Positions 3 to 55,121 of a stretch of 64,000 nt of DNA are shown one piece after another. The first letter of the stretch is position 1; every line of letters starts with the position of its first letter. The position numbers and the translations under genes were made by a program. The stretch comes from Thermoplasmata archaeon (GTDB lineage: Archaea > Thermoplasmatota > Thermoplasmata > Lutacidiplasmatales > UBA184): positions 6,373-70,372 of the forward strand of contig JBAQAF010000039.1 in assembly GCA_049285595.1 (NCBI GenBank), read 5' to 3'. A model generated the notes under the pieces. That model made no database searches. It was given only the letters and a program-made list of their open reading frames with translations, and was not told the DNA's origin.

Positions 3-731
3 ATGAGCGAGCCCCCCTGGGTCCGGTTCGAGGGCGCGAAATTCCGCGACGAGCTCACGAACTACAAGATGGCGAACCACCCGTTCAAAACCCATCCGTT
101 CTTCGCGGACGTCGAGCACGGAAAGGCCCCCGTAGGGCTGGTCCGCTCCTGGGTGAAGCAGTTCTACCCCTGGCTCGCCGCCGTGCCGATCGCGATGGCG
201 GAACGGTTCTCGAACTGCCCGTCGGACATCGCGAACGACCGGTATCGCCGCATGATCCTCGACCAGCTCGTCGAAGAGGCGGGGGATCCGAAGGGGAAGG
301 AACCCGGTCACCCCGAGCTGTGGCTGCGCTTCTGCGAAGGGATCGGGGTGCCGCGGGCGGAGGTGCACGGCGCACCCCTGCTCCCCAGCACGATGGTAGC
401 GATCGACGATTTCCTGTACACGAACCGGCTTCACCCGTTCTACATCTCCGCCGCCGGCTCCTCCGAGCCCCCGAACGTAGAACTATGCGCCCGGCTTCTT
501 CCCGCGTTCCGTCAGCACTACAAGGTGACCGAAGACCACCTCGAGTACTACCGGCTCCATGTCACGGCGGACGTCGAGCACAGCGCATGGGTCGGCGAGA
601 TTGTCGCTGACTTCGCGAACTCTCCGGGGGTCCGGCAGTCGATGTGGGAGCAGATGCTTCGCGGATTCGCGCTTCACCGCCTCCTGGTCGATGGGGTCGT
701 CGCAGCCGGGACGACCGCGCCTCCGCACTGA
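3..731 (+). CDS. Heme-oxygenase-like di-iron / PqqC-CADD-TenA superfamily protein
   Basis: Complete 242-aa ORF with ATG at 3. Family-typical motifs are 'DQLVEEAGDPKGKEPGHPELWLRFCEGIG' (E..G...H.ELW..F) and 'YRLHVTADVEHSAW' (H...D..H). The subfamily cannot be resolved by eye. Confidence 0.6.
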   Translation: MSEPPWVRFEGAKFRDELTNYKMANHPFKTHPFFADVEHGKAPVGLVRSWVKQFYPWLAAVPIAMAERFSNCPSDIANDRYRRMILDQLVEEAGDPKGKEPGHPELWLRFCEGIGVPRAEVHGAPLLPSTMVAIDDFLYTNRLHPFYISAAGSSEPPNVELCARLLPAFRQHYKVTEDHLEYYRLHVTADVEHSAWVGEIVADFANSPGVRQSMWEQMLRGFALHRLLVDGVVAAGTTAPPH

Positions 732-814: not shown

Positions 815-1129
815 GTGGTGCTCGGAATGTCGATGGATCTTCACGGTCCCAGTCCGTCGCCGGGGAGTTCCTCCGCGTACGTCTCGCCGGGGGCGATCCT
901 TGACCGGATCTACGAGATGAAACGACGGGTCGACGCCGGCACCTTGCTGGTCGAGGAGTTCGTTCGGAAGCGAGCGGATCTGATGACCACGACAGCTCCC
1001 CCCCGCGATGCGCCCGCCCCTTCGTCCACCCCCCACCGTGAACTCGCCAAGCTCGACTGGCTGCGCGACCGGACCGCAGTCACGGGCCCGCAGTACCTCG
1101 AGCTCCGGCGCCGCATCCTCTTCCGCTGA
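815..1129 (+). CDS. Small hypothetical protein with two SHOCT-like helical motifs
   Basis: 104-aa ORF. 'ILDRIYEMKRRVDAGTLLVEEFVRKRADLM' and 'LAKLDWLRDRTAVTGPQYLELRRRIL' resemble the SHOCT short C-terminal motif. Coding status is uncertain. Confidence 0.35.
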   Translation: MVLGMSMDLHGPSPSPGSSSAYVSPGAILDRIYEMKRRVDAGTLLVEEFVRKRADLMTTTAPPRDAPAPSSTPHRELAKLDWLRDRTAVTGPQYLELRRRILFR

Positions 1130-3262: not shown

Positions 3263-4755
3263 CCGGAGTCCGTCCCGCGATCGTCGTTTCCCTTCCGGCG
3301 CGCTCCGCGGCCGAGGCGGTCCCTCAGATCGTCGAGGCCCGGTCGGCCGGGGCGGACGCCGCCGAGATCCGTATCGACCGGTGGCCCCCGGAGGAACGGG
3401 CCCGCCTCCGCGATCTATTCCCTTCAAGCCTCCCGCTGATCGCGACGCTCCGATCCGCGCGAGACGGCGGCAGCGGTCCGGACGGACCGGCGGAGCGCGC
3501 CCCGTTGCTGCTCAGCTACGCAGCCTTACCGTTCCGGTGGATCGATCTCGAGCACGGGCGCGACGATGGGCTCGTCGATCGGCTCCCGCCGACGGAGACG
3601 CTCGGCCGCGTCATCTCCTGCCATCTTCGAGACGACGAGCTGCTCGACTGGCCCCGCCGGTGGTTGGAACTATCCAGCGTACGGGGCATCGGAAAACTGG
3701 TCGTCCCAGCATCCGTACCGATCGCGCTCGGGGAGATGCTCCCGAAGCTGCTCGGACCCCGGGACGAACCGGTCGTCGTCCATACGACCGGCCCGTCGGG
3801 ACCGCTCCTTCGCGCGTTCGCCCGCCGCCTCGGCTCCCCCCTCGTTTTCGCCGCTCTTCCCGAGGGGAACGGACGGGCGCCGGTCGAGCCGAGCCAGATC
3901 CCGGTCGACCGGCTCCGCCGCTATCTCGAGGCTCCCGGGGAGGCCCCGATGTTCGCGGTCGCGGGCCGGCCGATCGCGCACTCCCGCAGCCCCGCGATCC
4001 ACTCCACCTGGATGGAGACCGACGGACGGGCCGGTCTCTACGTTCCCCTCGAGTTCGCCTCGGACGATGAGTTCCTCGAATCGATCCCGCTCCTGGCGGC
4101 CAACGGCTTCCGAGGCCTCAACGTCACCCATCCGCTGAAAGCGGCGGCGTTCGAGGCGGCCACGGACGCGGGCCCGGGAGCCACCGCCTGCGGTGTGGCG
4201 AACTGTCTCACCCTCCGCGACGGGGAGGTCCTTGCCGAGAACACCGACCTCGTCGCGATCTTACGCCGGCTCGAGGAGCTTCGGGAGTCGGGTCCTTGGG
4301 ACGGTCGGTCGATCGTGGTCCTCGGGGCGGGGGGCGCGGCCCGGGCGACGCTGGCCGCAGCCCGCGCTCTGTCGATCCCGGCCACGGTCGTCGCGCGGCG
4401 TTCCGAGGCGGCGGCAGCGCTCGCGAAGGCGTTCGGAGCGAGTTCCGAAACGGTGGTCCGTCCGAACTCCGGCACCCTGATCGTGCACGCCTCCTCGGCC
4501 GGACGGGAGGGGGCCGGTCCCCTCGACCCCGTTCTCGCGAGGGCGATCGTCGGGGGTGGCGTGGTCCTGGATTGGGTCTACGCCCCCTCGGGATCGACCG
4601 TGCGCGACGCGGCGTCCTCGGCGGGGGCGGCGTACGAGGACGGCTGGAGGTTGTTCGTCTACCAGGCAGCCGCGAGCTACGCGCTCTGGTGGGGCGAGGA
4701 ACCATCGAAGGAGCTCGTCGACCGGGCGATCGTGGAGGGTGGATGCGCGGCGTAG
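3259..4755 (+). CDS. aroDE: Fused 3-dehydroquinate dehydratase (type I) / shikimate 5-dehydrogenase
   Basis: 498 aa. The N-terminal half is AroD-like ('IVVSLPARSAAEA...ADAAEIRIDRW'). The C-terminal half is AroE-like ('GRPIAHSRSPAIHSTW', 'LNVTHPLKAAAF', 'ENTDLVAI', 'VVLGAGGAARA'). Confidence 0.85.
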   Translation: MTGVRPAIVVSLPARSAAEAVPQIVEARSAGADAAEIRIDRWPPEERARLRDLFPSSLPLIATLRSARDGGSGPDGPAERAPLLLSYAALPFRWIDLEHGRDDGLVDRLPPTETLGRVISCHLRDDELLDWPRRWLELSSVRGIGKLVVPASVPIALGEMLPKLLGPRDEPVVVHTTGPSGPLLRAFARRLGSPLVFAALPEGNGRAPVEPSQIPVDRLRRYLEAPGEAPMFAVAGRPIAHSRSPAIHSTWMETDGRAGLYVPLEFASDDEFLESIPLLAANGFRGLNVTHPLKAAAFEAATDAGPGATACGVANCLTLRDGEVLAENTDLVAILRRLEELRESGPWDGRSIVVLGAGGAARATLAAARALSIPATVVARRSEAAAALAKAFGASSETVVRPNSGTLIVHASSAGREGAGPLDPVLARAIVGGGVVLDWVYAPSGSTVRDAASSAGAAYEDGWRLFVYQAAASYALWWGEEPSKELVDRAIVEGGCAA

Positions 4756-7974: not shown

Positions 7975-9044
7975 CGGACGTTCCCCTCCCGACGGCGATC
8001 CTGGGAGCGAGCGGCTACATCGGGCAGCATTTCGCTCGCCTCCTCGACGACCACCCCCGGTTCGGGCGACCGCTGCTCGGGGCCGGAGAGCGGTCGGACG
8101 GCCGTCGCCTTTCGGACGTCTGGCTCCTCTCGGAACCGACGCCCCCGCACCTCGGGGACCAGCGACTGACGCGGCTCTCCCCAGCCGCCCTCGAACGGGC
8201 CGGCGTCCGGGCGGTCTTCTCGGCGCTACCGTCGGGGACGGCGGGAGAAATCGAGACCGAGCTCGTACGCCGGGGGATCTCGGTGTTCTCCAACGCCGCG
8301 GACCACCGGATGGACCCCACCGTGCCGCTCCTCGTCCCGGAAGTGAACGCGCGCCATCTCTCGCTCCTCGCCCGTCGTCCTCGGCATCGGGGACTGCTCA
8401 TCGCCAATCCGAACTGCTCGGCCACCGGGCTCGTCGTGGCCCTCGCTCCGGTCCTCCGACTGCTCGCGCCTCGCGCCGTCCACGTAGCGACGTATCAATC
8501 GATCTCGGGTGCCGGCTACCCCGGCGTACCGTCCCTCTCCGTCACCGACAACGTCGTCCCGTTCATCCGGGAAGAGGAGGAGAAGCTCGAACTCGAGTCG
8601 ACACGGATCCTGGGAACCTTCCGGTCCGGCCGGGTCCGACCGGCCCGCTTCCCGCTCCTGGCGCACTGCGCCCGGGTGGCCACTCGGGAAGGCCATCTCG
8701 AGGCGGTGACCGTGGAGGCGACCCGTCGCCCGACGATCGCCGAGCTCCGGACCGCCTGGAGCACGTTCGATCCGTTGCGCGCGCTCGGTCTGCCGACCGC
8801 GCCCCATCCTCCGATCGAGCTGCGACGAGAGCCGGACCGACCCCAACCGGTCCGGGACCGTTGGGCGGGATCTCCGGAGCGCGCGCGCGGGATGGCGGTC
8901 GTGGTCGGACGGCTTCGCTGGACGCCTCCCTACCTACGGTTCTTCGTCCTCTCGCACAACGCCGTCCGGGGCGGCGCCGGAGGCTCGGTGCTGAACGCCG
9001 AGCTCACCGCGGCGAAGGGCTACCTCGACCCGGGAGCCGCGTGA
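7971..9044 (+). CDS. asd: Aspartate-semialdehyde dehydrogenase
   Basis: The GTG at 7971 (GTGA overlap with aroC) gives 357 aa. 'ILGASGYIGQ' is the NAD(P) site and 'NPNCSATGL' contains the active-site Cys. Confidence 0.85.
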   Translation: MTDVPLPTAILGASGYIGQHFARLLDDHPRFGRPLLGAGERSDGRRLSDVWLLSEPTPPHLGDQRLTRLSPAALERAGVRAVFSALPSGTAGEIETELVRRGISVFSNAADHRMDPTVPLLVPEVNARHLSLLARRPRHRGLLIANPNCSATGLVVALAPVLRLLAPRAVHVATYQSISGAGYPGVPSLSVTDNVVPFIREEEEKLELESTRILGTFRSGRVRPARFPLLAHCARVATREGHLEAVTVEATRRPTIAELRTAWSTFDPLRALGLPTAPHPPIELRREPDRPQPVRDRWAGSPERARGMAVVVGRLRWTPPYLRFFVLSHNAVRGGAGGSVLNAELTAAKGYLDPGAA

Positions 9045-19912: not shown

Positions 19913-20977
19913 TTAGGGTCGGATCCGCTCGAGCGACAGGAATCGGACCTCGGCCCCCGGCGCGACGCCCGCGATCAGGAACTCCTTGCGGACCCCCTGC
20001 GCGACGCGGACCCCACCGGCGACCCCCGGCCACGTGGCGATGTGGTCGGTCGGCACCGCCTGCACGAGGTATCGCGCATGCGAATGCTCGGGGTTGCGAG
20101 GGTAGGCGCGGAAATGGGCGCCGTACTTGAACCCCGTCTTCACGACGAGGCGGCGGGCGCGCAGATCACGATAGGCGGCGAGTCGTTCCGCGAACTGAGG
20201 GTCGAGCCGGCGGGCTCGGCGTTCCAACCGGTCGAGCGGCACGGGCCGTCCCGACGTGGCGTCCTTCACCGAGAGCTGGCCGTCCCCGGCCAGGTACGCG
20301 GCCTCGATCAGGCTTAGCTCCAGTCGGCCCCCAATGCGGCTCCCGTAGGCGAGCTCCTTGCCGAGCTTCTCGACCGCGTCGGCGTCGTGCACCGTCACCC
20401 GGTCCTCGGAGAGCCACGCCTCGGCGGGCGAGGAGAGCGAGCGGGGAGCGAGCGCCCCGTTCGGCGCGGGCCGGCGGACCCGGTAGTACGTCAGGTCCGA
20501 CTCTTCGTCGACGACCGCGAGCCAGAGAAGTCGGCGGGCCCCTTGGGCCCGCTCCGCGAGCGCAAAGATACGGGCCAAGTCGAACGGCTCGCGCTCGCTG
20601 AGCGCCTCGACCCAGAACCGGGAAGGGGTCTTGTTCGGGATCCCCCCGCGCGGCAGCACGGCGAAGGCGACGGGCGGGGGGCTCGCGCGGACGACGTACC
20701 CGCGCTGGCGCAGATCACGATACACGAGGTAGCGAACGGCGAACCCCGGGTCCGCCTTCACCGCGCGGCGGAACAGGCCGGGCCAGACGAGACCGCCTCC
20801 CCGCGGCACGGGCAGGTCGATCCGGCCCATCTCCGCGAGGTACACGGATTCGAACCGGTCGAGTCGCAGACTGCCGTCGGAACCGACCGTCCCGAAGAAC
20901 CCTTTCGCATAGACCGCGTTCGCCTCCGCCTGGTCCGAGATCCGGACCGTGGCGTCCGGGCCGATCTCGCCCGTCAA
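19913..20977 (-). CDS. endA: tRNA-splicing endonuclease, two-repeat (alpha-prime-2 homodimer-like) form
   Basis: 354 aa. The C-terminal repeat carries 'YRDLRARRLVVKTGFKYGAHFRAY...HSHARYLV'. The N-terminal repeat is degenerate ('YLVYRDLRQRGYVVRAS'). The TTG start overlaps the pyrE stop. Confidence 0.85.
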   Translation of the reverse strand: MTGEIGPDATVRISDQAEANAVYAKGFFGTVGSDGSLRLDRFESVYLAEMGRIDLPVPRGGGLVWPGLFRRAVKADPGFAVRYLVYRDLRQRGYVVRASPPPVAFAVLPRGGIPNKTPSRFWVEALSEREPFDLARIFALAERAQGARRLLWLAVVDEESDLTYYRVRRPAPNGALAPRSLSSPAEAWLSEDRVTVHDADAVEKLGKELAYGSRIGGRLELSLIEAAYLAGDGQLSVKDATSGRPVPLDRLERRARRLDPQFAERLAAYRDLRARRLVVKTGFKYGAHFRAYPRNPEHSHARYLVQAVPTDHIATWPGVAGGVRVAQGVRKEFLIAGVAPGAEVRFLSLERIRP

Positions 20978-50024: not shown

Positions 50025-53000
50025 TTAGGCAGCCTCGCGACCCGAGACGGTCGCGACGAGTCCCGCGTGGCTCGCGAGCGCGGTAGACAACCGTGTGACC
50101 GCCGGCCCGAACGACTGGTGTTCGGGGGCGAAGGTCACGTGGATCGTCTGCGCGTGCGGCGTGTGCGACGGCAGGACGGGGGCCACCACGATCGGGGACG
50201 CGGGAGCTCCCGTGCCCGTGTCGCCGCCGACCACCGGGATGGTGTACGTGTACGTCCCGTTGGGCAGCTCGAACTTGATCGTGGCCGACGTGCTGCTCAG
50301 GGTGATTGGCGATCCTGGCACCGGGCCGGTCACCGTAACGGACCAGCTCGTGTGCGCCGCCAACCCGTGCTCGCTGAAGGTGATCGCCCCGGCGTTAAGC
50401 TTGAACTTAATCGCCTTGTTCACCGTGACGCTACCGACCGACAGACCGCCGTGGGCCGGAGCAGCGTCGTAGATCGCGGGCTTTGTCACTTCATACTTGT
50501 ACGGGGTACCCTTGGCGATGGTGAACGTCACGGTGCTGCCCGTGGTCGTGGCCGCCGAGCCGGCCGGGCCGCCCGTCCCCGACGGAACCAGGGTGATGCC
50601 CCAGGTCGTCAGAGCCGGCAGTCCGGGCCACGGTACGGACGTCACTTCGTTGAAGTTCACCGTCTGCAGCTTGCCGAAGTGCAGGGTAATGGTCGTGGTC
50701 GCAGAGATCGGGGCCGATCCGTAGAGCGTCCCGTGGGGTCCCGTCACCTTGGCGAGTCCGTAGCCCGCAGGCGCGGTCACGGTGAAGTCCAACGTCCCGT
50801 TGGGGGCGTTGAAGGGCACCGAGGTCGCAGGTCCCGTCACGTTCGCGGACGTCTTTTCGGTCGAGGGAGAGCCCGCGGTCACCGTGAACGCGGTGCCGGC
50901 ACCCGCCGTGATGCCCGACTCCTTGAACGTCACCGACTGTTCGAACGGAACGTAGCGGACCTGGAACCAGACCGCATCGCCACCGCCGCCGATCATGACG
51001 TTCGTGTTCAGGGAGCTCGGGTCAATCCACGGAGCCGCCGAGGAGACGGCGTTCGCCTGGCCGTTCCACACGTACATCCCCAAGGCGTTGGTGATGTGCG
51101 TGATCAGGTTGTAGTCGAGCGTCCGGTCCGGTCCTACTGGCAATCCCGCCGCGATGCCCATCCAGTTCACCGCGACCGTGTAGGCGACTCCCTGGCACTG
51201 GGTGGTCAGGCGGCCCAGAGCGGGGTTGTCGACAGAGTGGGCCCAGTAGTCGAGGTCCTGGATCGTCGAGCCGTAGTGGCCGCACGCCGAGATGTTAGCG
51301 CTCGTCTGGGTGCCTTCGCCAACCATTCCCGAGAAGGCATCCGCCGCCGTGTAGGTGGCGTTCGGGCCAACCTCGGGGACGGTGTAGTCGGTCGGGTCCG
51401 GATAGTCCGGAGCCCAGCCCGAGCCCGTCTCGGAGATCAGGGGGTTGGTGCCGGGCGCGTTGAAGGCGATGTCCAGGAACTGGTCGAAGGTCAGGTCAAA
51501 GGTGTACGGCGCAAGCGCGCCACCCGTGATCGTGGTGATCTCCGCCATCCAGTCCGCAATCGCGGCGTCATCACTCGGATCTGCGTCGAGACCCGCGATC
51601 GGGAACGTGCACGGAGTCGCATGCGAGCACGAAGCGAGCTGCGGATCGTAGTAGGACGAGATCGGGTTATTCGCCTGGGCCCACCACCACGCGGAGCCAC
51701 CGACATCCGACGGGTTCAGGTCAGGGTCCGTGTTCGGGAATGACACGTTCGTCGGGTAGTAGTTCCCGAGACCGACGGGAATCGCGCCACCCGCATTGAA
51801 GTCGAACTGGATACCGTCGACAGTCCGGATGGTGTTCTCGACCGTGGTGTAGGGGTAGGCCTCGACGTAGAACTCACGCAGTGCCGGGTTGGTGAAGAAG
51901 TTCACCGGGATGTTGGGCAGGGGCTCCGACGGGAAGTAGGTCGAGAATTCGGACGGGCTCCATCGGAGGTTGACCGGCGTGAAGAACTGCGTAATGGTCG
52001 GGTTGATAAAGTAGTTCAGGTCGCCCTCGGACGCCAGCAGCTTCAGCGTCGTCGTGTGCGCCGCCTCGATGCCGGCAAAGTCCGCGATGTGCGCCCGATA
52101 CTGGCTGATGCCGAACGAGTCGTCGGGCTCCCAATAGACCTGGACGTTGTGGATGAACGCGCTCGGCGCGGGGTCGCAGTAGCCACCATACGTCGCCGCG
52201 ACACCAACGCCCGAGCAGCCACCGGGCTGCAGGTACGCGGGGTTCTCAGCGAGCGTGTAGCCTGCGCCGGGGATGACACCCGCGTAGTACGGGCCGGATC
52301 CGACCATGTTCCACTGAACACCGCCATCGACGATCGGCGAGGTGACGGCCGTCTCTTCGAACGAGTCCCACGAGAGGGGGTCTACGCCCGCCAGGTATGC
52401 CGCCCACGCTGAGCTGTCGGTCGAGGTGATCAGGTGGCCCGGGGTGCTGCCCGGGAGTCCGCAGGGACCGTCCCCGTGGGACGCCCCGAAGTTCGCGAAG
52501 CCCGGCATCGCGGCGCCTTCATACGAGAACCAGCCGCACGGCTCAACGCTCGCGCCGAGGTTGTCCGCCACCAGCTGCAGGAAGTAGGGCCAGTCAGATC
52601 CCCCACCGTTTGCGACGAAGGTGACGCAACCGTGTTCGTTAGCGATCGCCGACGCCGGACAGTAGGCCGTCGAGTTGACGAGCATCGAGCTCAGGATGCT
52701 GTTGGCCGTGGTATTGAACGGGTAGTGAAGGCCACCGTCGTAGACGGGGCTTCCGTACTGGAGCAGCGACTGCGCCTGGATCCAGCCCGGGTTCTTCCCG
52801 ACGTAGGGAACTTCCGAGAAGGCCAGCGTCCGCGCTAGGCTGAACATGACGTCCGACGGGTAGACTCCCCAGGACGCGTGCGTGGTCGGGTCGTAGAACG
52901 AGGCTTGCTTGTCGATGACAAACGTCCAGTAGATCGGCTCACCCGCAAAGGGTCCGGCGCCGTCAGCGACCAGGCTGGAGCCGTAGTCGGACGTGCACTG

Positions 53001-53441
53001 AGCGTCGCCCGGAACGCAGGTCGCCACCGTGGGAACGAACGTCGTCGTCGAGTTCCCATTGTAGTTGACCAGCGTCTGGTAGACGTTGATGATCGGCTCG
53101 TAGCTCACCGTGTCGTACGCAATGGACGGGTCTTCAGAATTGGAGCCCCCCGGTGCCACTTCGTAGACATCAAGTGTGCCTGCGTGTGGCGAGTGGGGGG
53201 ACGCTTCAATCGCCCCGCCTACTGGTACGGCCGATGCGGTCGTCTGCTGGACGGCTGCCCCCTGCGCACCAGTGGTATGCGTTACCACCGGTGCGGCAGG
53301 CGTAACCGACGCGGCGCTCAAGGCGCCGGCGGCGACGGGCAACGCCATGCTCAAAACGAGCACGAACGTCGCGGCAATGACTGCCGTCCGTCTTGTCGCA
53401 ATCTCTCCCACCGAATAAGACCCTCCCGGCAATTGGGTCAC
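50025..53441 (-). CDS. ABC transporter substrate-binding protein (family 5, peptide/nickel type) with a long C-terminal repeat extension
   Basis: 1138 aa with a GTG start, the signal/TM 'AVIAATFVLVLSMALPVAAGA' and an SBP5-like core ('YDTVSYEPIINVYQTLVNYNG'). The last 330 aa or so are repeated beta-sandwich modules ('VTFKESGITAG', 'ITFSEHGLAAHTSWSVTVTG', 'LPNGTYTYTI'). Confidence 0.8.
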   Translation of the reverse strand: MTQLPGGSYSVGEIATRRTAVIAATFVLVLSMALPVAAGALSAASVTPAAPVVTHTTGAQGAAVQQTTASAVPVGGAIEASPHSPHAGTLDVYEVAPGGSNSEDPSIAYDTVSYEPIINVYQTLVNYNGNSTTTFVPTVATCVPGDAQCTSDYGSSLVADGAGPFAGEPIYWTFVIDKQASFYDPTTHASWGVYPSDVMFSLARTLAFSEVPYVGKNPGWIQAQSLLQYGSPVYDGGLHYPFNTTANSILSSMLVNSTAYCPASAIANEHGCVTFVANGGGSDWPYFLQLVADNLGASVEPCGWFSYEGAAMPGFANFGASHGDGPCGLPGSTPGHLITSTDSSAWAAYLAGVDPLSWDSFEETAVTSPIVDGGVQWNMVGSGPYYAGVIPGAGYTLAENPAYLQPGGCSGVGVAATYGGYCDPAPSAFIHNVQVYWEPDDSFGISQYRAHIADFAGIEAAHTTTLKLLASEGDLNYFINPTITQFFTPVNLRWSPSEFSTYFPSEPLPNIPVNFFTNPALREFYVEAYPYTTVENTIRTVDGIQFDFNAGGAIPVGLGNYYPTNVSFPNTDPDLNPSDVGGSAWWWAQANNPISSYYDPQLASCSHATPCTFPIAGLDADPSDDAAIADWMAEITTITGGALAPYTFDLTFDQFLDIAFNAPGTNPLISETGSGWAPDYPDPTDYTVPEVGPNATYTAADAFSGMVGEGTQTSANISACGHYGSTIQDLDYWAHSVDNPALGRLTTQCQGVAYTVAVNWMGIAAGLPVGPDRTLDYNLITHITNALGMYVWNGQANAVSSAAPWIDPSSLNTNVMIGGGGDAVWFQVRYVPFEQSVTFKESGITAGAGTAFTVTAGSPSTEKTSANVTGPATSVPFNAPNGTLDFTVTAPAGYGLAKVTGPHGTLYGSAPISATTTITLHFGKLQTVNFNEVTSVPWPGLPALTTWGITLVPSGTGGPAGSAATTTGSTVTFTIAKGTPYKYEVTKPAIYDAAPAHGGLSVGSVTVNKAIKFKLNAGAITFSEHGLAAHTSWSVTVTGPVPGSPITLSSTSATIKFELPNGTYTYTIPVVGGDTGTGAPASPIVVAPVLPSHTPHAQTIHVTFAPEHQSFGPAVTRLSTALASHAGLVATVSGREAA

Positions 53442-53463
53442 CCGATTTCGGGAGGCGGGCTCC

Positions 53464-53471
53464 CTATATGA
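53464..53471 (-). promoter_or_regulatory. Candidate TATA box (minus strand TCATATAG) for the substrate-binding-protein gene
   Basis: Centred about 26 nt upstream of GTG 53441, a leaderless-type geometry. Confidence 0.35.
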
Positions 53472-54313
53472 GCTTTCAATAGCCGTTTTGACACACCGCC
53501 ACTATCGGGGCCGCTCGTCGGCCGGACGGGGTGGAAAATCTCTTCTTCGGCGACAAAAAGGGATGCAGTAGGGGGCCTCCAACCGGCCCGTGCCCCGAGC
53601 GCCCGACCGTCGTACCATTCCCGGTCGAACGGAGCCCCGATGATGGATAACTCACGGTTCTAGGGGAGTCCCCCGGGCCAAGCCGTGGTTGGGGGTTAGA
53701 GATTGAGCGATCTGGAGCATTGCCGCGTCGTAAGGGCCCGCGGTAAGGTCGGACCGGGCCCTTGCCCGACCGGCGGCTCTCCGCTCGGGTCATGGCGCCC
53801 GCCCCCGCGGGAGACCGACCGATCGGTCCGGGCTGGATCCACGGCTCCCCATCGATGAAGAGGTTCCCGCGAAGGTTCTGTCTTCTAGCCCCCTGCGGGC
53901 CGGGGAGAGGTCGTGGATCTGCCTCGAAGGATCGGTGGATGCACTCTCCTCCCTCGCCCGCTCTGCCGGGGAGCGCGGCGTTCCCGTGACTCTGGATCGG
54001 ATGACTCCAGTCAGCGTTTAGGAACGTCAGGGGAGCCGAGTCATGGAGCGGCGGGCTAGGGTCGGCCCTCACGGACCACCCTGCCGCCCCCTCGGTGGCT
54101 CCCCGGAAAACCATGCAGCCATGCGATGGACGGATGTGGGGGGAGGTGCCGGAGGAGGGGACGTGGGCCGCCCCCCTACGTCTCGCATCTAGACTTGGGG
54201 CGCCTCCGAGAATCCCTGGGCAAAGCGACCCTGGAATCGGCCTTGCCTGTACACGTACAACCCTAGTCGGGCAGGTCCCTCTTGGCCATACCGGGGTTTG
54301 GAGCCCCCCGATC

Positions 54314-54431: not shown

Positions 54432-54533
54432 TGCTCCCGGCGGGAGTTTCCCCGGGCGGCGCGAACCGCCCGGTTTTGAACCCGCGTCAGAGGCTCGAGA
54501 GGCCTCTATCCTTGACCACTAGACTACGGGAGC
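54432..54533 (-). tRNA. tRNA-Glu (anticodon CUC) with a 29-nt intron in the T-loop (59/60)
   Basis: Folded by hand. Acceptor stem is GCUCCCG/CGGGAGC (7 bp) and the anticodon stem is GAGGC/GCCUC with loop C-U-CUC-G-A. The T-stem is GCGGG/CCCGC, the discriminator is A, no CCA is encoded, and TTTT lies downstream. The gene is 102 nt, or 73 nt after intron removal. Confidence 0.85.
54446..54474 (-). other. tRNA intron (bulge-helix-bulge) in the tRNA-Glu T-loop
   Basis: The intron is ACCGGGCGGUUCGCGCCGCCCGGGGAAAC. An inner 8-bp helix CCGGGCGG/CCGCCCGG is flanked by the 3-nt bulges AAA and ACU, which are separated by UUCA/GGAA (3 Watson-Crick pairs plus A.G). Confidence 0.7.
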
Positions 54534-54713
54534 GCCGGCGCTCGGTAGCGAGCCGACCGTTTCAACCTTTCTGCGCGGCGGGCTCTCGGATAGCGCGCTT
54601 CGATGCCTCGGGACTTTCGGTGCGGGGGCCGACGTGCGATCGTTCCACAGGGGGGGTAATGCGACCGAATTCTCCGCAGATGGGGCCGCGCGAGCCGTGC
54701 CCGGGAGAACCGC

Positions 54714-55121
54714 CTACCGAAGGCTCACGGGTTGAGCGGGGGACGGATCGGCCTCGACGACGACGGCGGTCCCGTACGCCATGATCTCGGTCATGATCTC
54801 GCTCATCTCCGACGTATCGAAGCCCACCGACAGGACCGCGTTCGCTCCGAGGCTCATCGCGTGCTGCGTGAGCCGGGAGATCGCCTCGTGCCGGGACTGC
54901 TCGAGCAGCTGGGTGTACTCGGTGATCTCCCCGCCCGCCAAGCTTCGGAGACCGGCGACGATGTTCCGGCCGAGGCCCCGGGAGCGGACGATGAGACCGA
55001 ACGTGACCCCGATGACGCGAATGACCCGGAACCCGGGGAGGAACGGGGTCGTCACGACGGGGATCTGGGACGGAGGGGCGTACATGGGGGCCCCTGGCGG
55101 AGCGAGCGGAGTGCCGGACAT
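54714..55121 (-). CDS. ybjQ: YbjQ/UPF0145 family protein
   Basis: 135 aa. 'GVTFGLIVRSRGLGRNIVAGLRSLAGGEITEYTQLLEQSRHEAISRL...GANAVL' is typical of YbjQ. The second ATG at 55085 is an alternative start. Confidence 0.8.
   Translation of the reverse strand: MSGTPLAPPGAPMYAPPSQIPVVTTPFLPGFRVIRVIGVTFGLIVRSRGLGRNIVAGLRSLAGGEITEYTQLLEQSRHEAISRLTQHAMSLGANAVLSVGFDTSEMSEIMTEIMAYGTAVVVEADPSPAQPVSLR

Follow-up and report, generated by a model that had tools for sequence, protein, structure and literature searches.

A near-strict BHB intron in the T-loop of tRNA-Glu(CUC) in archaea of the order Lutacidiplasmatales

In a 64,000-nt stretch of Thermoplasmata DNA (hereafter the window), the minus-strand locus 54432-54533 is very probably a functional tRNA-Glu(CUC) gene, whose intron would be removed by the usual BHB splicing of archaea at a site, between nucleotides 59 and 60 of the T-loop, that is unusual but already documented. 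The order concerned, Lutacidiplasmatales (formerly TMEG, GTDB UBA184), comprises uncultured archaea of acidic soils and peat with a G+C content of approximately 69%, and tRNA introns are not mentioned in its description (PMC9287336). Here, the structure of the interrupted gene, its conservation among relatives, and the endonuclease encoded in the same window are described, and the gene is compared with known archaeal tRNA introns.

Structure of the interrupted gene

The gene, including its intron, spans 102 nt (54432..54533, minus strand), carries the discriminator A73, and does not encode CCA. A sequence-only reading of the window had proposed a 29-nt T-loop intron at 59/60 in a minus-strand tRNA-Glu(CUC) gene; its coordinates, strand, parsing and length were found to be correct, and the spliced form is a cloverleaf. 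The 5' exon (54475..54533, minus strand; tRNA positions 1-59) contains the 5' acceptor strand, the D arm, the anticodon arm with the anticodon CUC, the variable region, the 5' strand of the T stem and UUCAAA, while the 3' exon (54432..54445, minus strand) contributes U60, the T-stem 3' strand CCCGC, the acceptor 3' strand CGGGAGC and A73. Read as RNA from window position 54533, positions 1-59 with the bulge nucleotides are GCUCCCG UA GUCU AGUGGUCAA GGAU A GAGGC CUCUCGA GCCUC UGAC GCGGG UUCA AAA, and the part after the 5' bulge, down to 54432, is CCGGGCGG UUCGCG CCGCCCGG GGAA ACU CCCGC CGGGAGC A. The acceptor stem has 7 bp, the D stem 4 bp, the anticodon stem 5 bp (loop CUCUCGA, anticodon CUC), and the T stem 5 bp. 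All four stems, described earlier as perfect, do form after intron removal, but the D stem is not entirely Watson-Crick, as it holds two G.U wobbles (G10.U25 and U13.G22).

In the genomic sequence, the T stem encloses 36 nt instead of the usual 7, and, judged by its base pairing, the locus is a tRNA only once 29 nt leave the T-loop. The 73-nt exon-joined form, with the T-loop UUCAAAU, was folded by ARAGORN into a standard cloverleaf of tRNA-Glu(CUC). With the Rfam tRNA model, the unspliced locus scored 28 bits against a gathering score of 29, the local match entering the intron. No match anywhere in the window, which has a G+C content of approximately 70%, attained a gathering score. A covariance model combining the tRNA with the BHB motif gave a match of 123.1 bits on the window, covering exactly 54432-54533.

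The intron (ACCGGGCGGUUCGCGCCGCCCGGGGAAAC; 54446..54474, minus strand) lies between tRNA positions 59 and 60, and its removal yields the 73-mer of the intron-less relatives. The central BHB helix is formed by the exon strand U54 U55 C56 A57 (54477..54480, minus strand) and the intron strand GGAA (54448..54451, minus strand). U54-A, U55-A and C56-G are standard pairs and A57 faces G; the spacing is thus four positions, with three pairs and one non-standard opposition. On opposite strands are two bulges of 3 nt each, AAA and ACU, whose lengths, with the exons as anchors, are constant in the 107 distinct homologues among the matches listed. The 5' bulge (54474..54476, minus strand) consists of A58, A59 and the intron nucleotide 1, an A, with the predicted 5' cut after A59, and the 3' bulge (54445..54447, minus strand) consists of the last intron nucleotides A and C followed by U60, with the predicted 3' cut before U60. 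The flanking helix h is the invariant 5-bp T stem, and the flanking helix h' is an intron helix of 8 bp between CCGGGCGG (54466..54473, minus strand) and CCGCCCGG (54452..54459, minus strand). The earlier wording, a "near-canonical" hBHBh' motif, was apt, the fourth central position in the window being A.G, and by these pairings the intron is a near-strict hBHBh' at a non-canonical position. In the minimum-free-energy fold, h, h' and the rest of the tRNA were predicted, and UUCAAAA/GGAAACU stayed an open internal loop, as is expected of a helix of 3 bp with bulges on either side.

The intron-less tRNA-Glu(CUC) genes of three relatives (L026, L038 and L105) are identical at 73/73 positions to the predicted spliced product of the window gene, and these genes fix the splice junction without any folding rule. 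Given that the first intron nucleotide in the window is A, UUCAAA|U is the sole junction that yields UUCAAAU. In the canonical intron, the 4-bp helix includes the first two anticodon bases, and the bulges next to it contain the splice sites (PMC4090602). The 5' cut accordingly falls behind the second nucleotide of the bulge, and this rule, applied symmetrically here, puts the two cuts after A59 and before U60. The T-loop UUCAAAU that was anticipated from symmetric bulge cuts matches that of the intron-less relatives exactly. Covariance-model scoring of the exon-joined sequence, named beforehand as a test, also came out in favour of a tRNA, the identical intron-less genes scoring 68.2 bits with Rfam RF00005.

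Appearance of the gene to annotation tools

On the genomic sequence, ARAGORN reports an 88-nt model (54446-54533, minus strand) with a wrong 3' end and a poor structure. The acceptor stem of this model has 5 bp with mismatches, its 6-nt T loop is taken from the intron hairpin, and its long variable arm is spurious. This model is what speaks for a mature tRNA in which the insert is retained as an extra hairpin in or beside the T arm. We regard such a tRNA as barely credible. The T loop of the 88-nt model does not have the UUCRA consensus, the model ends inside GGAAAC, and it leaves unused a perfect acceptor stem of 7 bp and a T stem of 5 bp. The hairpin sequence is also unconserved, whereas the true T-loop nucleotides are invariant, and the relatives without the intron have an ordinary 73-nt gene.

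ARAGORN also gives 88-nt calls in the relatives L001-L008, and it reported no tRNA at the genes with 32-nt introns in L009-L012. ARAGORN mis-draws the gene and the Rfam tRNA model stays below its threshold, so that these MAGs can seem to have an aberrant decoder for the main Glu codon or none at all. Prokka-type pipelines use ARAGORN, and many MAGs of the lineage probably have tRNA-Glu(CUC) mis-annotated or not annotated at all. When introns were allowed, most of the tRNAs that ARAGORN reported across all loci of this DNA, which is rich in G+C, were spurious and had introns hundreds of nucleotides long. Its two short-intron calls, Ala-CGC in L054 and Leu-CAG in L109, were rejected as false because they represent an identical protein-coding stretch in two genomes.

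Distribution of the intron among relatives

One genome per GTDB species was scanned using a pattern that described the tRNA 5' half only and allowed any 3' half. At least 119 loci from at least 118 assemblies were found. This DNA pattern scan, rather than synteny with the YbjQ-family protein gene located directly upstream of the tRNA (54714-55121, minus strand), was the productive route to orthologues. A contig search with the window's own YbjQ sequence found none, relatives being reached via YbjQ homologues; YbjQ adjoins the tRNA in only 30/132 loci, and the neighbourhoods are rearranged. At loci reached via YbjQ synteny the interrupted gene is present too, in some cases with loop changes. 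All loci among the matches listed are from Thermoplasmata MAGs, with the exception of one labelled Methanobacteriota archaeon and one labelled "bacterium", and the relatives include Candidatus Lutacidiplasma silvani AcS3-62, a Candidatus Lutacidiplasmatales MAG, and many acid-soil MAGs of the AcS and SubAcS series.

Among the matches listed, 111 of the 119 loci have an insert at 59/60, and the other 8 have an ordinary intron-less 73-nt gene, in four distinct sequences. The listed matches contain 107 distinct full-length intron-bearing genes, in which the insert measures 26-32 nt and is always located between A59 and U60; at five more listed loci the gene is cut by a contig end, with intron-type sequence visible after UUCAAA. 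The exons of these 107 distinct genes are near-invariant and change only as compensated pairs. In the L009-L012 group, the insert is 32 nt long and has a wholly different hairpin sequence, and the UUCA...GGAA ACU frame is retained. The presence of the insert at one site in 111/119 listed loci, together with the compensatory changes in the intron helix, places the interruption beyond chance.

In one MAG (JASHVP01, isolate JOPF208), two contigs (L055 and L071) end inside tRNA-Glu(CUC), one at its 5' end and one within the intron. This fits an assembly that breaks at a variable intron, possibly as a result of strain heterogeneity.

Covariation and variation of the BHB motif

The 34 genes with 29-nt introns form a gap-free alignment (A1), in which 95.7% of the structure cells are paired, compared with 37-58% in slid registers; none of 500 shuffles reached the observed values. 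In these 34 sequences, both partners vary at 7 of the 8 h' pairs. A covariance model built from the A1 structure had exactly one match in each of 100 sources. In the resulting model alignment of 96 distinct sequences, which is fitted to the model and therefore biased towards the structure, all 8 pairs of h' show both-side changes, 93.3% of h' cells are paired, compared with 36-58% for the structure as a whole in slid registers, and the acceptor, D and T stems are unbroken throughout. In a count anchored on the exon boundaries of the 107 genes among the matches listed, pairing amounts to 71-98% per h' position (1-8), and shifted registers give irregular and generally much lower values (5-99%). 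The two 3-nt bulges, the 4-position helix and the 8-bp intron helix, as originally drawn for the window alone, are thus kept and covary in approximately 100 species.

The exon strand of the central helix, U54 U55 C56 A57, is fixed in the 107 listed genes. Opposite it, these genes have A (94) or G (13) at U54, A (97) or G (10) at U55, and always G at C56, so the three pairs, Watson-Crick or wobble, can form in 107/107 of them. A57 is faced by G in 81, by U in 23, by A in 2 and by C in 1 of the listed genes; the fourth central position is thus a true A-U pair in about one-fifth of the species among the matches listed and A.G in the rest, the window included. The 5' bulge has A58 and A59 fixed and a free third nucleotide (U 46, G 32, A 28, C 1; 107 listed genes), and the 3' bulge is ACU in 86, AAU in 8, AUU in 8, AGU in 3 and CCU in 2 of the same listed genes.

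The start of the intron sometimes resembles the 3' exon. In L131 (DATJWA010000003.1), the first 9 nt of the tRNA-Glu(CUC) intron (TCCCGCCGG) are identical to the first 9 nt of the 3' exon, and with this repeat the precursor could form an alternative complete T arm using intron sequence. Introns start with U in 46 of the 107 genes among the matches listed, often with UCC, which resembles U60-C62. Such resemblance may bear on the origin of the intron.

Copy number, codon usage and upstream region

In five ORFs of the window, GAG and GAA codons occur in a ratio of 196:47, so that tRNA-Glu(CUC) reads the main Glu codon. Among the matches listed, no assembly has a second copy of the gene or both an intron-bearing and an intron-less form; an intact intron-less copy elsewhere, which the sequence-only reading had named as grounds for calling this locus a pseudogene, did not appear alongside an intron-bearing gene in any listed assembly. 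The gene is thus probably the only tRNA-Glu(CUC) copy in its genome.

Upstream of the tRNA, a promoter-like element, GAAAGGUUGAAACGG (in the window GAAAGGTTGAAACGG), was identified at 54557..54571 on the minus strand, that is at -38..-24 from the tRNA 5' end. It is kept as cGAAAGGCTCAAAGAG at the same distance upstream of the homologues, within an upstream region that is otherwise G+C-rich and unconserved. Archaeal BRE/TATA elements are expected at -38..-24, and we infer that this element is a putative BRE/TATA-like promoter from which the tRNA-Glu(CUC) locus would be transcribed. The intron-bearing genes share cGAAAGGCTCAAAGAG, and the intron-less genes of L026, L033 and L052 have TTAAATA-like boxes upstream. 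Intron state and promoter type go together, and the TTAAATA-type boxes suggest that the intron-less relatives represent a separate sub-lineage rather than scattered losses.

A disrupted pseudogene, dead and carrying 29 inert nt, with GAG decoded instead by tRNA-Glu(UUC) or by a copy located elsewhere, is highly improbable in the light of these data. Some archaea reportedly lack CNN tRNAs, according to the title of one study, and the genome is represented here by 64 kb only. However, the exons are invariant in the 107 distinct genes among the matches listed, while the insert varies with compensatory changes that preserve the BHB motif. The conserved promoter-like element, the presence of one copy per assembly among the matches listed and the dominance of GAG among the Glu codons also speak against a dead gene.

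Between the tRNA and the next gene lie approximately 950 nt that, the start region of that gene excepted, show no conservation with the relatives, and nothing was found in them. The conserved stretch (53306-53479, minus strand; 174 nt), at the start of a 1138-aa ORF (50025-53441), comprises approximately 40 nt upstream of the start codon and the N-terminal coding part; it is 97% identical to the corresponding sequences of L005-L008 and L040 and 84-88% identical to those of L084 and L094. Elsewhere in the window, 8357-8422 (minus strand) shows weak similarity to sR53, a family of archaeal C/D-box sRNAs (28.1 bits against a gathering score of 49; E=0.021).

The tRNA-splicing endonuclease of the window

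The cognate two-repeat EndA gene that had been noted at 19913-20977 is present, and it lies on the minus strand. It encodes a protein of 354 aa with two tandem repeats (alpha'2 type), as judged by Pfam, PDB relatives and repeat alignment. PF01974 and PF02778 each match EndA in two stretches, the halves of the protein align mutually with 30% identity (E=8e-10), and its PDB relatives are the EndA proteins of M. kandleri, A. pernix, M. jannaschii and A. fulgidus. Against M. jannaschii EndA, the C-terminal repeat shows KYG..EHS..VRK in a gap-free alignment through the Tyr, His and Lys positions, which we take to be the catalytic triad as in the M. jannaschii enzyme. In the N-terminal repeat, PPV, KTPS and ARR stand at the places aligned to the catalytic residues. 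By this alignment, the Tyr/His/Lys triad is kept solely in the C-terminal repeat.

The loops L1 (CSL), L2 (ASL) and L3 have been defined as sites of inserts associated with broad specificity (PMC5829648). In the alignment of the window EndA, no such inserts were found before the catalytic His or at the C-terminus; at the CSL site there is no gap relative to M. jannaschii, and the CSL residues of A. pernix fall in gaps of the query. The window EndA is thus, in its aligned architecture, an alpha'2 enzyme without broad-specificity inserts, and it is predicted to act as a homodimer. The substrate of alpha4 and alpha2 enzymes is the strict 3-4-3 hBHBh' motif, which enzymes of the type found in the window are likewise reported to need (PMC3239211). 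The window intron matches the motif asked for by such an EndA, the A.G position excepted, and there is no conflict between a strict-type enzyme and a strict-type motif that sits at an unusual position.

The proposed splicing pathway would proceed as follows. In the precursor, the T-loop nucleotides U54-A57 would pair with the intron's GGAA, close to its 3' end (U-A, U-A, C-G, and A opposite G), forming a short central helix flanked by the 5-bp T stem (h) and the 8-bp intron hairpin (h'), with the 3-nt bulges AAA and ACU remaining on opposite strands. The homodimeric two-repeat EndA (19913-20977) would cut after the second nucleotide of each bulge, and an RtcB-type ligase would join A59 to U60, yielding a 73-nt tRNA with the T-loop UUCAAAU and the predicted exon junction GGGUUCAAA|UCCCGC. 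The 29-nt intron would be released, probably as a circle with the predicted junction ...GGGGAAAC|ACCGGG....

Comparison with known archaeal tRNA introns

Position 59/60 is among the listed non-canonical intron positions, which range from 20/21 to 59/60, and BHB recognition can be transplanted to other tRNA positions, including 59/60 (PMC4090602). The same source states that euryarchaeal tRNA introns occur at 37/38 only. This rule has already been softened by the counts of tRNAscan-SE 2.0, which include 25 non-canonical introns in 144 euryarchaeal genomes (PMC8450103, Suppl. Table S7). These comprise 11 introns in Methanosarcinales, 6 in three genomes of Methanomassiliicoccales, 4 in Methanocellales, 2 in Methanopyrales and 1 in five genomes of Thermoplasmatales, the table giving counts without positions or isoacceptors (PMC8450103). 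The euryarchaea of Table S7, among them sister orders of the window lineage, have non-canonical introns together with alpha4 or alpha'2 enzymes (PMC8450103). A T-loop intron alongside a two-repeat EndA had been singled out as notable in the sequence-only reading, which was right in part, since both 59/60 introns and euryarchaeal non-canonical introns are documented (PMC4090602, PMC3239211, PMC8450103).

The closest parallels at this position were found in ARMAN-2 (Ca. Micrarchaeum), where pre-tRNA-Pro(GGG) and pre-tRNA-Cys(GCA) likewise have T-loop introns at 59/60 (PMC3239211); a 59/60 intron of ARMAN-2 also served as a substrate in another study (PMC5829648). The ARMAN-2 tRNA-Pro intron has a strict hBHBh' motif (PMC3239211), similar to the near-strict motif of the window gene, whereas its tRNA-Cys intron is a relaxed hBH of 13 nt. 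ARMAN-2 further differs in its EndA, a three-unit epsilon2 enzyme with a broad-specificity loop in contrast to the plain two-repeat alpha'2 enzyme of the window, and in that 56% of its tRNA genes are disrupted. Protein-spliced BHB introns outside 37/38, with 59/60 included as in the window, are also known in Crenarchaeota, in particular Thermoproteales (PMC4090602). These organisms have (alpha-beta)2 EndA enzymes with a CSL loop, many introns per genome, relaxed motifs and evidence of intron transposition, whereas the intron of the window lineage occupies a single site in a single isoacceptor and is stable across an order-level lineage. With the canonical 37/38 hBHBh' intron, the window intron shares the 3-4-3 spacing, the predicted cut after the second bulge nucleotide, and the enzyme class. 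In contrast to the canonical intron, it has the T stem in place of the anticodon stem as flanking helix h, its central helix uses U54-A57, which are later needed for tertiary contacts between the T-loop and the D-loop, and its fourth central pair is A.G in most species among the matches listed.

In the literature searched on archaeal tRNA introns, neither a 59/60 intron of tRNA-Glu(CUC) nor its order-wide conservation is described. While the kind of intron and its position are known from Crenarchaeota and ARMAN-2, a euryarchaeal lineage with such an intron stably present throughout an order does not appear to have been described. The known splicing mechanism is unchanged by this finding. The intron provides a clean exception to the "37/38 only" rule, an intron fixed at one site of one isoacceptor in more than 100 species-level genomes, and this stability contrasts with the mobile and multiplying introns of Thermoproteales. 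Moreover, the natural variants, with A-U versus A.G, G.U wobbles and four different middle bases in the 3' bulge, constitute a substrate panel for a strict-type homodimeric EndA.

A real intron could in addition be under selection for an extra role, such as the disruption of the site in the T arm and 3' end that tRNA-integrating elements target, a maturation checkpoint, or a functional circular intron RNA, which we consider quite unlikely. In favour of such a role, the intron has been retained at one site in approximately 100 species-level genomes among the matches listed despite rearranged neighbourhoods (YbjQ in 30/132 loci), and the intron mobility of Thermoproteales (PMC4090602) was not seen in the relatives. 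However, the intron sequence outside the BHB motif varies freely, 8 related loci among the matches listed manage without an intron, and retention can be neutral once the sole copy depends on splicing. A scan of viral contigs with the spliced 3' half gave 0 matches, a result that is uninformative on the integration-target idea. A selectively maintained intron could shield an integration target in the T arm and 3' end, or could act as a splicing-dependent maturation checkpoint; the latter is conceivable because U54-A57 cannot form the T-loop before the intron is removed. Two further propositions seem unlikely: that the 59/60 intron is a long-lived and selectively maintained part of the sole tRNA-Glu(CUC) gene of Lutacidiplasmatales, or that the alpha'2 EndA of the lineage routinely accepts A.G. 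If true, acceptance of the A.G mismatch by an alpha'2 enzyme would soften the "strict 3-4-3" rule for homodimeric enzymes. Ordinary BHB splicing of a functional gene is the reading that we prefer.

The same BHB core in other tRNAs

A metagenome scan was performed using a narrow pattern with the same BHB core beside a T stem differing from that of tRNA-Glu. It gave 90 matches, which were filtered by T-stem and acceptor complementarity and by refolding of the spliced forms; nearly all were chance matches, or an ordinary tRNA followed by a chance match. Among these 90 metagenome matches to the narrow pattern, the BHB core was not found in any non-Glu tRNA of the high-G+C lineage, which weakly suggests, within the limits of this pattern, that the intron is specific to tRNA-Glu(CUC) in the lineage.

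The scan yielded one clean case from an unrelated low-G+C archaeon, an initiator-like tRNA-Met(CAU) on the metagenome contig Ga0315314_1000393 (L203, approximately 860-990, plus strand). This tRNA has a 30-nt intron at 59/60, with the UUCA/GGAA helix and the AAN/ACU bulges as in tRNA-Glu(CUC), and it has A1:U72, GGG/CCC in the anticodon stem, and an encoded CCA. Two further loci, L198 (approximately 4200-4330, plus strand) and L215 (approximately 510-640, plus strand), have a Met(CAU)-like anticodon loop, a T arm with a 31-nt insert in the T-loop, and a 3' acceptor strand. The sequence upstream of their anticodon loops does not continue the tRNA, and this broken 5' part could reflect a further intron or a split gene.
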